A DNA stretch of 34,669 nucleotides from a virus. Its lineage: Duplodnaviria; Heunggongvirae; Uroviricota; Caudoviricetes. Numbering within the stretch: the first letter of the stretch is position 1; every line of letters begins with the position of its first letter. Positions 30,533 to 34,095 of this stretch are shown piece after piece. The stretch lies in the IMG/VR virus record IMGVR_UViG_2872158770_000004, one strand, 5' to 3'. The notes beneath the pieces are model-generated. The model saw nothing but the letters and a program-made list of their open reading frames with translations. It searched no databases and was not told the origin of the DNA. A program made the translations under genes and the position numbers.

Positions 30533-31026
30533 ATGGATCGAGAGTTAAAAAATCTGACGCTGAATATCAGTCAACTGGCGGCACTGTCAGGTGTACATCG
30601 CCAGACTGCTGCGGCAAGGCTGCAAAATCTACCCGTTGCAGGGGGCATGAAAGCAACCTCAAGCTTTATCGGGTGGTTGATATTGTGTCGGCATTTCTGG
30701 CATTACCACCGCCGGTTGCAGAAGGCGAAATGGACGCGCATGAGCGCAAAGCCTGGTATCAGTCTGAACGTGAGCGTCTTAAGTTCGAACAGGAAACGGC
30801 ACAACTCATTCCGGCCAGTGATGTCAGACGGGAGTTTGCCATCTGGGCAAAAGCGGTCGTGCAGGTGCTGGAGACATTACCGGATATTCTTGAACGTGAC
30901 TGCGGTCTGCAGCCTGCCGCTGTGAGCCGTGTTCAGTCCATTATTGATGATCTGCGCGATCAGATAGCCCTGCGGGTGACTGAAGCAGGTGCGGATGATG
31001 AGGAGGAATTACAGCAGGAGGAGTAA
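30533..31026 (+). pseudogene. Terminase small subunit (Nu1-like HTH N-terminus) with an apparent +1/-1 frameshift near 30640-30660
   Basis: Frame A from ATG 30533 gives MDRELKNLTLNISQLAALSGVHRQTAAARLQNLPVAGG then garbles; frame B continues ...NLKLYRVVDIVSAFLA... to a stop overlapping the large-terminase ATG (TAATG at 31024-31028). Confidence 0.55.
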
Positions 31027-31383
31027 TGCTGAATCAGGAAACCGCAAAGGCAGCACGAACCGATTCAGGTTATATCCTTCGCGCACCGAGACGAATGCGG
31101 GTTGCTGATGCCGTTGCTCAGTATATGCGGGTGCCCATGGGGGCAGGGAACTCAGTCCCGTGGGATCCGCTGGTGGCACCGTATGTTATTGAGCCGATGA
31201 ACTGCCTGGCCTCGCGTGAATACGACGCAGTGATATTTGTTGGCCCGGCACGAACCGGCAAGACTATCGGCCTGATTGACGGCTGGGTGATTTACAACGT
31301 GATTTGCGATCCTGCTGATATGCTGATTATTCAGATGACGGAGGAAAAAGCCCGCGAACACTCCAAAAAACGACTCGCCAGAA
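31026..31383 (+). pseudogene. Terminase large subunit, N-terminal 119 codons only (Walker A VGPARTGKT), truncated by IS600 copy F
   Basis: Track ORF 31026..31391 ends in a stop inside the IS600 terminus. Confidence 0.6.
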
Positions 31384-31447
31384 TGAGGTAGCCTGAGTTT
31401 AACGGACACTCCTTCCTGAAATAGAATGGCATCAGAAGGAGCTAATA

Positions 31448-31750
31448 ATGAGCAGAAAAACCCAACGTTACTCTAAAGAGTTCAAAGCCGAAGCTGTCAG
31501 AACGGTTCCTGAAAATCAACTTTCGATCAGTGAAGGCGCTTCCCGATTATCTCTTCCTGAAGGCACTTTAGGACAATGGGTTACCGCCGCCAGAAAAGGG
31601 CTCGGTACTCCTGGTTCCCGCACGGTGGCTGAACTGGAATCTGAAATTCTGCAACTGCGTAAGGCGTTAAATGAAGCTCGCCTTGAGCGAGATATATTAA
31701 AAAAAGCAACAGCGTATTTTGCACAGGAGTCGCTGAAAAATACGCGTTAA
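31448..31750 (+). CDS. IS600 OrfA
   Basis: 100-aa ORF. Confidence 0.93.
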   Translation: MSRKTQRYSKEFKAEAVRTVPENQLSISEGASRLSLPEGTLGQWVTAARKGLGTPGSRTVAELESEILQLRKALNEARLERDILKKATAYFAQESLKNTR

Positions 31751-31785
31751 TCGAACAATGGCGACAACAATTTCCCATTGAAGCG

Positions 31786-32604
31786 ATGTGTCAGGTATTT
31801 GGTGTATCCAGGAGCGGTTATTACAACTGGGTACAGCATGAACCCTCAGACAGAAAACAAAGTGATGAGCGGCTAAAACTGGAGATTAAGGTGGCACATA
31901 TCCGCACTCGCGAAACATATGGAACCCGGCGGCTCCAGACGGAGCTGGCAGAGAATGGCATCATCGTTGGTCGTGACCGACTGGCACGTCTTCGTAAGGA
32001 GCTAAGGCTACGCTGTAAGCAGAAACGCAAGTTCAGAGCGACTACGAACTCGAACCACAATCTGCCAGTTGCGCCAAATCTGCTGAACCAGACGTTCGCT
32101 CCTACAGCACCAAATCAGGTCTGGGTGGCGGACCTGACGTATGTTGCCACACAGGAGGGATGGTTGTACCTCGCTGGCATCAAAGATGTTTATACGTGCG
32201 AAATTGTCGGCTACGCCATGGGAGAGCGCATGACAAAAGAGCTGACAGGTAAAGCCCTGTTTATGGCGCTCAGGAGCCAGCGCCCACCTGCCGGGCTAAT
32301 CCACCACTCTGATCGAGGTTCACAGTACTGCGCATACGATTACCGGGTCATACAGGAGCAGTCTGGTCTGAAAACATCAATGTCGCGTAAAGGTAACTGT
32401 TACGACAACGCTCCGATGGAAAGCTTCTGGGGAACGCTGAAAAATGAGAGCCTGAGCCACTATCGTTTTAATAACCGGGATGAAGCCATCTCAGTAATAC
32501 GGGAATACATTGAGATTTTCTACAATCGTCAGCGTCGTCACTCTCGTCTGGGGAATATCTCCCCGGCAGCCTTCAGGGAAAAATATCATCAGATGGCTGC
32601 TTAA
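31786..32604 (+). CDS. IS600 transposase OrfB
   Basis: 272-aa ORF. Confidence 0.93.
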   Translation: MCQVFGVSRSGYYNWVQHEPSDRKQSDERLKLEIKVAHIRTRETYGTRRLQTELAENGIIVGRDRLARLRKELRLRCKQKRKFRATTNSNHNLPVAPNLLNQTFAPTAPNQVWVADLTYVATQEGWLYLAGIKDVYTCEIVGYAMGERMTKELTGKALFMALRSQRPPAGLIHHSDRGSQYCAYDYRVIQEQSGLKTSMSRKGNCYDNAPMESFWGTLKNESLSHYRFNNRDEAISVIREYIEIFYNRQRRHSRLGNISPAAFREKYHQMAA

Positions 32605-32647
32605 AAAAAGAACAAATGGTAGTGTCCGCTATTGCCAGTACACCTCA

Positions 32648-32989
32648 GCCGTCTGGCGATACCCGGCGCATTCGGCTTTGGGTGTGCTTTTCTGCCTGAA
32701 GATGTTATCCGTTTTGACACTAAGAGTGATTTCCTGGCCTGGGTAAGGAATGCGCTGCCAGGTGAATATTCCGTTGCTGGCCCCTACGACATCATCATAC
32801 CCGACACACGGTTTGAAGGGGGGCTCAGCATCCGGTGGACTGATGCACGCCCTGAGACAACAGAACCGAGGTACAGAGCCAAATCCCTTACTTTTTACGG
32901 CATTAACGGCCCCATTTATCACACCCGCTACTGCTACTGGCCCATATCCAGACTGACTGGCTGGGTGAAAATAAATATAACCACAGAAG
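32648..32989 (+). pseudogene. Late-gene fragment (possibly tail-fibre C-terminal region), 5' end lost at IS600 F, interrupted by IS1 copy 3
   Basis: Track ORF 32632..32994 starts in the IS600 terminus and stops in the IS1 terminus; function inferred only from position next to a downstream gene. Confidence 0.35.
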
Positions 32990-33044
32990 GGTGATGCTGC
33001 CAACTTACTGATTTAGTGTATGATGGTGTTTTTGAGGTGCTCCA

Positions 33045-33320
33045 GTGGCTTCTGTTTCTATCAGCTGTCCCTCCTGTTCAGCTACTGACGGGGTGGTGCG
33101 TAACGGCAAAAGCACTGCCGGACATCAGCGCTATCTCTGCTCTCACTGCCGTAAAACATGGCAACTGCAGTTCACTTACACCGCTTCTCAACCCGGTACG
33201 CACCAGAAAATCATTGATATGGCCATGAATGGCGTTGGATGCCGGGCAACTGCACGCATTATGGGCGTTGGCCTCAACACGATTTTACGTCACTTAAAAA
33301 ACTCAGGCCGCAGTCGGTAA
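33045..33320 (+). CDS. insA: IS1 InsA
   Basis: 91-aa ORF (GTG start). Confidence 0.92.
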
Positions 33321-33742
33321 CCTCGCGCATACAGCCGGGCAGTGACGTCATCGTCTGCGCGGAAATGGACGAACAGTGGGGCTATGTCGGGGCTAAATCG
33401 CGCCAGCGCTGGCTGTTTTACGCGTATGACAGTCTCCGGAAGACGGTTGTTGCGCACGTATTCGGTGAACGCACTATGGCGACGCTGGGGCGTCTTATGA
33501 GCCTGCTGTCACCCTTTGACGTGGTGATATGGATGACGGATGGCTGGCCGCTGTATGAATCCCGCCTGAAGGGAAAGCTGCACGTAATCAGCAAGCGATA
33601 TACGCAGCGAATTGAGCGGCATAACCTGAATCTGAGGCAGCACCTGGCACGGCTGGGACGGAAGTCGCTGTCGTTCTCAAAATCGGTGGAGCTGCATGAC
33701 AAAGTCATCGGGCATTATCTGAACATAAAACACTATCAATAA
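33239..33742 (+). CDS. insB: IS1 InsB
   Basis: 167-aa ORF. Confidence 0.9.
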
Positions 33743-33766
33743 GTTGGAGTCATTACCCCACAGAAG

Positions 33767-34095
33767 ATATTATTTACAGAATCGTGGCGAGCTCTGTCTG
33801 CAACAGATGGGGAGACCCTGACATTGGCGGGCTGATTATTGCTGCGTACCAGGGAGAAGCTGACGGTGATAAAGTCATCAGACTTGTCAGGGGGCAGTCA
33901 TACAGAGGCTCACGACTGGGACCGGTGGGGATTTCAGTGCCCAGTACTCCCACCGGAACGTATATAGCATCCCCACAATTTTTCATTACGGGATGTTCAG
34001 AGCATTCATTACCGGGGTCATATAGCGCCCTGTCCGGGGTGCCGGATGCTCATGTCTCTGGCGCAATGCCCGGGCTTTTTATTCGCACATCGTGA
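33767..34095 (+). pseudogene. Continuation of the IS1-interrupted late gene
   Basis: After removing IS1 plus one TSD copy the frame from 32648 continues (...ITTEDIIYRIVASSVCNRWGDPDIGG...LFIRTS*). Confidence 0.35.

Follow-up and report, generated by a model that had tools for sequence, protein, structure and literature searches.

Loss of about 19 kb at an IS600 copy probably removed the morphogenesis genes of a sit-carrying Rac-site prophage of Shigella sonnei

A sit-carrying prophage of Shigella sonnei at the Rac site has very probably lost about 19 kb of its packaging and morphogenesis region at one IS600 copy (copy F), and the loss most likely came about by recombination between two IS600 copies, a mechanism suggested by the mismatched flanks of the element that remains. 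The whole stretch of DNA that was analysed, referred to here as the window, is 34,669 nucleotides long and extends from the intR stop codon to that of the last phage gene, and so covers the whole prophage. Judged from its sequence, the window is a defective lambdoid prophage of S. sonnei at the ttcA/intR (Rac) site. Its start was 98.8–100% identical to intR of FDAARGOS_944 and CFSAN029787, where intR adjoins ttcA, and positions 21027–34669 were 99.985% identical over 13.6 kb to S. sonnei 53G (HE616528.1). The sit genes lie outside the window, and in 53G sitDCBA-uspF-ompN directly follow the point where the window ends; four ABC-transporter genes (Pfam ABC-3 twice, ABC_tran and ZnuA) were called there, followed by a Usp-domain gene and a porin gene, in an order that matches sitDCBA-uspF-ompN as annotated in the E. 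coli relatives. The features of a Rac-site sit-carrying prophage (PAI sit), namely ttcA with intR/xisR and sitABCD before uspF, were all found. The features around the junction are listed in Table 1.

Table 1. Features of the late region of the window and the evidence for each
Feature	Position	Strand	Evidence or details
Lysis cassette, intact, upstream of the packaging genes	28541..29717	+	Pfam Phage_holin_2_1, Phage_lysozyme, Phage_lysis
Class II holin	28541-28756	+	
Endolysin	28756-29253	+	
Rz-type lysis protein	29250-29717	+	
DUF1441-type small terminase gene, frameshifted in the window	30533..31026	+	Pfam DUF1441; PHROG 141 terminase small subunit
gpA-type TerL stub, 119 of 700 codons plus 1 nt	31026..31383	+	Pfam, PHROG, alignment
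IS600 copy F, complete, 1,264 bp, probable deletion junction	31384..32647	+	orfA 31448-31750, orfB 31786-32604
Tail-fibre remnant, first part, from about codon 249 of a 470-codon gene	32648..32989	+	PHROG 2636; protein alignment by eye
IS1, 768 bp, simple insertion in the fibre remnant	32990..33757	+	perfect 9-bp duplication
Tail-fibre remnant, second part, up to the natural stop codon	33758..34095	+	
DUF4376 gene, intact, tail-fibre-assembly-like, 207 aa	34046..34669	+	Pfam DUF4376; PHROG 1141

To the left of IS600 F, the lysis genes called in the 53G locus encode products of 71, 165 and 155 aa. The frameshift in the small terminase gene is due to one G missing from a G6 run at about position 30641, a base that 53G and every other assembly in the comparison retain. 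In most S. sonnei genomes the DUF1441 small terminase gene that precedes the 121-residue stub is intact. The initial annotation had the large terminase halted after 119 codons by IS600 F, and on this point the open reading frame, Pfam, PHROG and the comparison with E. coli TF5 all agree. The stub, which carries the Walker A motif GPARTGKT, matched Pfam GpA_ATPase at profile positions 2–80 of 247 (E 4.5e-22) as well as PHROG 15 (terminase large subunit), its residues were identical to those of the 700-aa TerL of TF5 at 119 of 119 positions, and its last base (31383) corresponds to position 1044 in locus L004 of FDAARGOS_944. After the TerL part, the stub reading frame (31026–31391) runs 8 nt into IS600, as far as a TAG. 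A TerL of the gpA type combines GpA_ATPase and GpA_nuclease in about 640–700 aa, and the full-length relatives have 700 aa with both domains; the Pfam search found no GpA_nuclease domain in the stub product, which is accordingly shorter and lacks one of the two domains, and the stub is classed as a gene fragment of the gpA-type family and not as a functional member.

IS600 F begins TGAGGTAGCC and finishes GTACACCTCA, and its two reading frames encode 100 aa and 272 aa, the genes being matched in the 53G locus by Pfam HTH_Tnp_1 and rve. Its length of about 1.26 kb, TG...CA inverted repeats, orfA/orfB arrangement and near-identity to other copies identify it as IS600 of the IS3 family; it differs by 0–2 bases from four other full-length copies in the window, and a sixth copy, E, is split by another IS. 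The E. coli matches, 99.4–99.7% identical, are annotated by PGAP as IS3-like element IS600 and IS1-like element IS1A. As initially described, IS600 F is flanked by GAA on the left and GCC on the right and is without a 3-bp target duplication; perfect 3-bp duplications were found at copies A (TTG), C (GTA), D (TAG) and E (CAC), where a match of the 3-bp flanks would be expected by chance at 1/64 per copy, and the duplication is missing from two of the six copies in the window (B and F). The IS boundaries, flanks and duplications are not due to chance, and the IS copies are near-identical repeats. Because four of the six IS600 copies do have the 3-bp duplication, its absence from copy F marks a rearrangement junction, while casting no doubt on copy F being IS600.

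On the far side of IS600 F, the first part of the fibre remnant was 99.4% identical to CFSAN029787 (L001 20001–20342) and 96.8% identical to FDAARGOS_944 (L004 20001–20339). The IS1 that splits the remnant lies between two exact copies of the 9-bp duplication CCACAGAAG (32981–32989 and 33758–33766); its length, its insA/insB genes and this duplication are those of IS1, it differs by 1 base from each of two other IS1 copies, and InsA and DDE_Tnp_IS1 domains were called for it in the 53G locus. When the IS1 and one copy of the duplication were taken out, the remnant became one uninterrupted frame, 222 codons long with its end at 34095, which matched PHROG 2636 ('tail fiber protein') at positions 340–567 of 568 (E 2.3e-90). 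A lambdoid side tail fibre comprises a conserved N-terminal domain and a variable, receptor-binding C-terminal part and is followed by an assembly gene; the N-terminal 248 of 470 residues are absent here, and the remnant is read as a C-terminal fragment only. The sequence beyond IS600 F is thus the 3′ part of a tail-fibre-like gene, split by an IS1 with a clean 9-bp duplication, as had been proposed; its description as an unrelated late gene is correct for the gene as such, but comparison with FDAARGOS_944 assigns the fibre to the same ancestral prophage and not to a foreign element. The DUF4376 gene overlaps the 3′ end of the fibre gene, likewise in the relatives, where the same 624-bp gene is annotated, and no other phage gene lies between it and sitDCBA.

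Comparison with intact relatives had been set beforehand as the check on the deletion, and FDAARGOS_944 confirmed it at IS600 F. The prophage is present in this E. coli strain too, at the same place in the chromosome, in the order ttcA-intR ... lysis-DUF1441-TerL-portal-protease/capsid-tail genes-J-Lom-fibre-DUF4376-sitDCBA-uspF. Colinearity between the two extends from intR to DUF4376, and the sole large gap is an interval of 18,956 bp (NZ_CP065613.1 5025720–5044675) that lies exactly between the two flanks of IS600 F, with base-exact breakpoints at ...CTCGCCAGAA / CGTTTCGCG... and ...GGACAAAAG / GCCGTCTGG... (slashes mark the breaks). The FDAARGOS_944 genes inside this interval are the remainder of TerL, the portal and protease/capsid genes, the entire set of tail genes, J, Lom and the fibre gene's 5′ half. 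The size of the true ancestral loss is approximate, because the FDAARGOS_944 prophage is only 96–99% identical to the window and has many annotated frameshifts. E. coli VL40 also carries J-Lom-fibre-DUF4376-sit. CFSAN029787 was considered as an intact reference and rejected: its left arm and fibre-sit module match the window, but its late module is of a different, contractile-tail type, so that it is not the right reference for the lost genes. The prophage of E. coli TF5 (NZ_CP154412.1) resembles the putative ancestor of the window in having a lambda-like late module with a DUF1441 small terminase and a gpA-type TerL, and was 96% identical to the window over 2.86 kb in the lysis-DUF1441-TerL 5′ region; unlike the window it keeps the whole 20-kb head/tail cluster, and it occupies a different site, by proA and tRNA-Thr.

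The absence of portal, capsid and tail genes from this prophage copy, also claimed initially, held across the window: no structural genes were found elsewhere in it, and since the window spans the whole prophage and its remaining open reading frames are early, replication, lysis or IS genes, no head or tail genes lie elsewhere in the same prophage. At least 11 IS copies lie within the 34.7-kb window. The prophage is predicted to be unable to produce particles, and this outcome would be over-determined, because intR is interrupted by IS600 A, the small terminase gene is frameshifted and a nested IS600/IS3-family insertion parts the Q-like gene and the tRNA genes from the lysis genes.

An assembly artefact, in which a mis-join across the high-copy, 1.26-kb IS600 repeat collapsed the late region, has a practically negligible probability. 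False joins of this kind do occur at IS600 F in the draft assemblies L007–L009, where a single N is followed by unrelated prophage DNA; because the N stands immediately after the IS600 segment in each, the other right flanks seen there, which belong to prophages with complete head genes, were rejected as evidence and regarded as scaffold joins and not as ongoing IS600 exchange or a relocated late region. The junction and its right flank, however, are identical in two independently assembled complete chromosomes (53G HE616528.1 and CP044191.1), five further places were reported with similar neighbouring genes, and the exact 121-aa stub product occurs on 122 contigs under S. sonnei names; the seven blocks with contigs of >1 Mb have the same or similar neighbouring genes at the places read. 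That an IS600-mediated inversion or translocation instead put the portal-to-Lom block elsewhere, by another IS600, is highly improbable. S. sonnei genomes are rich in IS600 and in rearrangements, one contig free of N (L013) has the lysis cassette joined through an intact IS600 to mutH-ygdQ-ygdR (L010 has the same genes across N gaps), and full-length 700-aa TerL proteins under S. sonnei names are 100% identical to the query over residues 120–700. Yet both flanks of IS600 F stand in ancestral order and strand, which fits a deletion and which a single inversion cannot give. Moreover, the protein search with TerL residues 120–700 returned only full-length or contig-truncated proteins among the best 120 matches, with no C-terminal fragment of about 580 aa, and the three chromosomes returned for the S. 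sonnei-named 700-aa TerL all have intact, IS-free prophages. In L008 a full-length TerL adjoins the stub scaffold, but it has 8 differences from the stub in 403 positions and is therefore ascribed to a paralogous prophage and not to the missing remainder. It is also unlikely, by a wide measure, that the stub and the fibre remnant come from separate elements, with IS600 F fusing the left part of one prophage to the fibre-DUF4376-sit module of the other. The fibre-DUF4376 module is exchangeable, since it stands behind a contractile-tail late module in CFSAN029787 and RMDEC332 and precedes ipaH, not sit, in two EIEC-like genomes; but FDAARGOS_944 has DUF1441/gpA and fibre-DUF4376-sit in one continuous prophage at the ttcA-uspF site, colinear on both sides, VL40 has J-Lom directly upstream of the same fibre, and the flanks of a single Rac-site prophage are present, with intR at the window start and sit-uspF-ompN after the window in 53G.

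Under the preferred reading, a deletion by recombination between two IS600 copies, the ancestor would have had a lambda-like late region with a small terminase, a gpA-type TerL, portal, a protease/capsid fusion, tail genes, J, Lom, a side tail fibre and a fibre-assembly-like gene. Two IS600 elements would have inserted in the same orientation, one into TerL at target GAA and the other into the fibre gene at target GCC, and homologous recombination between them would have cut out the intervening DNA, leaving a single hybrid element whose flanks do not match. In that one deletion, bounded by IS600 F, about 19 kb would have gone, from TerL codon 120 to fibre codon 248. The IS1 would have entered the remaining fibre fragment separately, by ordinary transposition. 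The outcome would be a remnant unable to package DNA or to build heads and tails, with the adjoining sit cargo kept. A search of 5,426 complete E. coli genomes used four queries: the two real junctions, and two synthetic ones representing a single insertion, the first running from the IS600 end through GAA into downstream TerL and the second from upstream fibre through GCC into the IS600 start. Among these genomes the best coverage of any junction query was ≤58%, no identical junction was found outside Shigella, and in none did IS600 occupy either target while the DNA next to it was intact. With no such intermediate among the E. coli genomes, it is the mismatched flanks that point to two copies. 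There is a distinct possibility that a single IS600 at one site deleted the adjacent 19 kb through the action of transposase, by intramolecular transposition or through an active IS dimer, with no second copy involved: the flanks alone do not tell such a deletion from two-copy recombination, and neither one-IS intermediate was found. IS1 and IS3-family dimers are known to delete adjacent DNA, and such deletion by a single element may operate in the window, because IS600 B and IS1-b, both without duplications, are associated with about 185 bp (relative to CFSAN029787) and about 135 bp of missing DNA, respectively, small losses that are hard to explain by two insertions and favour adjacent deletion. 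IS3-family elements, however, normally move by copy-out/paste-in, which does not itself delete flanking DNA, and the IS600 copy number of S. sonnei is very high, which makes two insertions 19 kb apart followed by RecA-dependent recombination plausible.

IS600 is among the five IS that are expanded in all Shigella, and in a comparison of three Shigella species recent IS activity was reported to be highest in S. sonnei (Hawkey et al., 2020, PLoS Genet, PMC7373316). The IS decay described in the main text of that study involves the same elements as the window (IS1, IS2, IS600, IS911-like and IS630), with gene interruption and associated deletions; it is a genome-wide catalogue of insertion sites and gene loss, and its main text, in which the word 'prophage' occurs 0 times, does not describe the junction or the prophage of the window. 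The sit island has been described as unstable and of variable size, shaped by insertion sequences and with rearrangements and deletions that are put down to homologous recombination (PMC7545054, citing Fisher et al., 2009). A table in the same article gives aspS and yecN as insertion sites of PAI sit, whereas the site here is ttcA/uspF. In 53G and the E. coli relatives sitABCD stands at the right end of the prophage, as in the described Shigella/EIEC island. Rac of E. coli K-12, like the window prophage, lies next to ttcA and has intR/xisR at its left end. Rac is a defective lambdoid prophage that is also without most morphogenesis genes, with recE-type early genes, a right arm that ends in a side tail fibre and assembly gene, and uspF-ompN to the right of the prophage. 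Its losses are a different event from the IS600-marked deletion of the window; Rac has no sit operon, whereas the window prophage partly retains its packaging genes and has a junction marked by IS600.

The finding is an instance of ordinary IS-driven prophage decay, which is known biology and brings no new kind of feature or principle; public S. sonnei genomes already carry an annotation of the truncated gene, and both IS-driven decay and sit-island instability are in the literature. The stub keeps, along with the Walker A motif, the N-terminal region through which gpA of lambda contacts the small terminase subunit. If expressed, the stub could conceivably act as a dominant-negative decoy against packaging by superinfecting lambdoid phages, and selection for such a decoy, or for locking in sitABCD, could then account for the fixation of the exact junction across S. 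sonnei, although we hold this to be very improbable. The main value of the result lies in correct annotation, and in showing cleanly, to the base, how Shigella prophages are eroded as IS600 expands. Without its large terminase, portal, capsid and tail genes, and with a split integrase, the sit-carrying prophage would be immobilised, and the sit iron/manganese uptake genes would thereby have become fixed chromosomal cargo that is no longer phage-transducible.

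The open reading frame beginning at 31026 encodes MLNQETAKAAR...KKRLAR over 119 codons and then reads 8 nt of the IS600 repeat to a stop (ORF listing of 30900-34669). Its product aligns with positions 2-80 of the 247-position Pfam GpA_ATPase profile and with PHROG 15 (terminase large subunit), and the 119 residues are identical to residues 1-119 of the 700-aa TerL of E. coli TF5. The initial annotation, by which the large terminase ends at IS600 F, was thus borne out by direct reading of the frame; the absence of a target duplication at IS600 F was confirmed as well. The window carries six copies of this 1,264-bp repeat, which is annotated IS600 in E. 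coli matches (99.4-99.7% identity) and whose full-length copies differ from one another by no more than 2 bases. Comparison of the flanks across all six revealed a 3-bp duplication at copies A, C, D and E; duplication is therefore the norm among the IS600 copies here, and F lacks one. On the far side of IS600 F, removal of the IS1 and one copy of its duplication restored a single 222-codon frame ending at 34095, which aligns with the C-terminal part of the 568-position profile PHROG 2636, 'tail fiber protein' (340-567; E 2.3e-90), and this sequence is accordingly the 3′ part of another late gene, as had been proposed. The 768-bp element splitting it is annotated IS1A in E. coli matches and has the same CCACAGAAG on either side, which is the clean 9-bp duplication described earlier; its insertion is a separate, simple transposition.

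Features of the prophage by window coordinates; IS600 flanks are given in each element's own orientation
Feature	Coordinates	Left flank	Right flank	Remarks
IS600 A	492-1755	TTG	TTG	splits integrase gene intR
IS2	2805-4135			5-bp duplication TAATT; just after xisR/DUF1187
IS600 B	5957-7220	TAT	GTT	recE region; no duplication
DDE_3 transposase, 343 aa	12603-13634			inside immunity region, between Rha and repressor genes; taken to be IS630-type from size and domains
IS1 copy a	19170-19937			10-bp direct repeat AAGATGAGTT
IS1 copy b	22686-23453			no 9-bp duplication
IS600 C		GTA	GTA	
IS600 D		TAG	TAG	
Four tRNA genes	25419-25729			anticodons CAT (called Met), TCT (Arg), TGT (Thr), TCC (Gly)
IS600 E	25912-28427	CAC	CAC	split by inner element
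Element inside IS600 E	26729-27977			1,249 bp, IS3-family, IS911-like; own 3-bp duplication TAC
Holin-endolysin-Rz cassette	28541-29717			Pfam/PHROG matches
Small terminase gene				directly before TerL stub; DUF1441/PHROG 141
IS600 F	31384-32647	GAA	GCC	starts TGAGGTAGCC, ends GTACACCTCA; ORFs of 100 and 272 aa
IS1 in fibre remnant	32990-33757	CCACAGAAG	CCACAGAAG	
DUF4376 fibre-assembly-like gene	34046-34669			profile matches

As the window runs from the intR stop codon to the DUF4376 stop codon, the whole prophage is covered. Besides the lysis genes, tRNA genes and IS transposases, the remaining ORFs encode the split integrase, an AAA ATPase and Gam (as annotated in relatives, by alignment), RecE (Pfam Exonuc_VIII), Rha, repressor, YdaT, DUF1376, a DnaC-like ATPase, DUF977, DUF551, hok, DUF1367, YbcO/DUF1364 and DUF1133. 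All are of early, replication, lysis or IS types, and the claim that portal, capsid and tail genes are absent from this prophage copy is upheld. The tRNA cluster is the same in the prophage of E. coli FDAARGOS_944; the relatives' copy of the CAT tRNA is called Ile by PGAP, and the fourth gene is annotated tRNA-Val in CFSAN029787. The element inside IS600 E is 94% identical to an FDAARGOS_944 element annotated ISEc52. With the DUF1133 (Q-like) gene and its tRNA genes on one side and the holin gene on the other, this nested pair probably cuts the lysis genes off from late transcription. The DUF1441 gene is frameshifted at ~30641, where a G6 run lacks one G in the window; the run is intact in S. 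sonnei 53G and every other assembly compared, and the missing G either is particular to this strain or reflects a sequencing error.

The size of the loss was determined against an undeleted relative at the same site. CFSAN029787 carries fibre-DUF4376 at the right end of its prophage beside ttcA, followed by sitDCBA-uspF, and identity between this prophage and the left arm of the window reaches 99.9%. Its late module, however, belongs to another, contractile-tail type, which makes it unsuitable as the reference for the lost genes. In FDAARGOS_944 the order is ttcA-intR-xisR ... recE ... repressor-ydaT-ydaU-dnaC-like ... DUF1367-DUF1364-DUF1133-tRNAs-lysis, then DUF1441-TerL-head-tail connector-portal-ClpP/capsid fusion-tail genes-tape measure-J-Lom, then fibre (470 aa)-DUF4376-sitDCBA-uspF. 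Alignment indicated that the window is colinear with it from intR to DUF4376, with a single absent interval of 18,956 bp once IS insertions and two short stretches of divergence are set aside. The breakpoints are base-exact (left edge ...CTCGCCAGAA|CGTTTCGCG..., right edge ...GGACAAAAG|GCCGTCTGG...), and agree with the sequence on either side of IS600 F. The interval comprises TerL codons 120-700 and fibre codons 1-248, together with 17 complete genes that start with the head-tail connector and portal and continue over the tail genes to J and Lom. The order J-Lom-fibre-DUF4376-sit is seen independently in E. coli VL40. In the FDAARGOS_944 prophage, DUF1441, TerL, portal, capsid, tape measure and J are annotated as frameshifted, and it has insertions of its own (ISEc60 in recE, and ISEc52); this prophage may itself be defective, or there may be indel errors in its assembly.

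One IS600 without a duplication thus lies exactly at a 19-kb gap, with ancestral order and strand kept on both flanks, from which we infer a deletion; a single inversion does not fit, as it would leave one flank reversed. Given a deletion, we lean slightly towards recombination between two IS600 copies in direct repeat, of which one had inserted at GAA in TerL and the other at GCC in the fibre gene; this would have removed the interval between them. Adjacent deletion by the transposase from a single IS600 copy is a serious rival. In its favour, no one-IS intermediate was found at either site among complete E. coli genomes, and duplications are likewise missing from IS600 B and IS1 copy b of this window, at losses of only ~185 bp (of the CFSAN029787 recE region) and ~135 bp (of FDAARGOS_944 sequence), respectively; the IS600 B site is a second, small IS600-associated deletion. 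That the late genes were instead relocated elsewhere in the S. sonnei chromosome is very improbable. When TerL residues 120-700 served as a protein query, the hits included full-length proteins of 700 aa with S. sonnei names, and the best 120 contained no ~580-aa fragment. One full-length TerL follows the stub in draft scaffold L008, but it has 8 mismatches to the stub over 403 positions and lies beyond a scaffold N, which makes it a paralogue from a different prophage and not the rest of the lost gene.

Exact look-up of the 121-aa stub product retrieved S. sonnei 53G (HE616528.1, an accession that PMC5447701 confirms as this strain), CP044191.1 and ~200 further assembly blocks, and the NCBI names were all Shigella sonnei (122 contigs); public S. 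sonnei records thus already carry an annotation of the truncated TerL gene. Relative to 53G, window 21027-34669 shows one substitution and one 1-bp deletion across 13,644 bases, and past the window's last gene 53G continues with four ABC-transporter genes (sitDCBA), uspF, ompN and nifJ. In draft S. sonnei-type assemblies (L007 8980, L008 2941, L009 4225), a single N joins the IS600 F copy to unrelated prophage contigs, and such false neighbourhoods could pass for alternative arrangements. Block L014 (9120-10358) has the identical stub junction with another prophage's sequence upstream (16 differences, all upstream of 30563), L008 (638-1676) is 72-78% identical upstream of ~30743 and 100% downstream, and in L013 (6138-7401), which has no N, IS600 links the lysis cassette to mutH-ygdQ-ygdR, a neighbourhood shared, with N gaps, by L010. 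As judged from these sequences, the patterns suggest that, among S. sonnei strains, prophages have recombined with one another and IS600 has mediated rearrangements.

The fibre and DUF4376 sequence is rare, 10 of 5,426 complete E. coli genomes having ≥80% of it, and the module is a movable cassette. In CFSAN029787 (L001 17599-21245) and RMDEC332 it forms a second fibre pair behind a contractile-tail late module, and in E. coli O121 201805972 and RMDEC465 (L021, L022) it stands upstream of ipaH, not sit. The sit island is described as unstable, showing deletions, insertion sequences and homologous recombination in the summary of Fisher et al. 2009 given by PMC7545054.

Collectively, the observation is confirmed and its interpretation supported. 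It is highly doubtful that the fixed TerL stub has a function of its own, for instance in hindering superinfecting phages from packaging their DNA. The expansion of IS elements in Shigella, IS600 among them and most of all in S. sonnei, and its role in gene loss are well documented (PMC7373316), and the type of event at IS600 F is already known.
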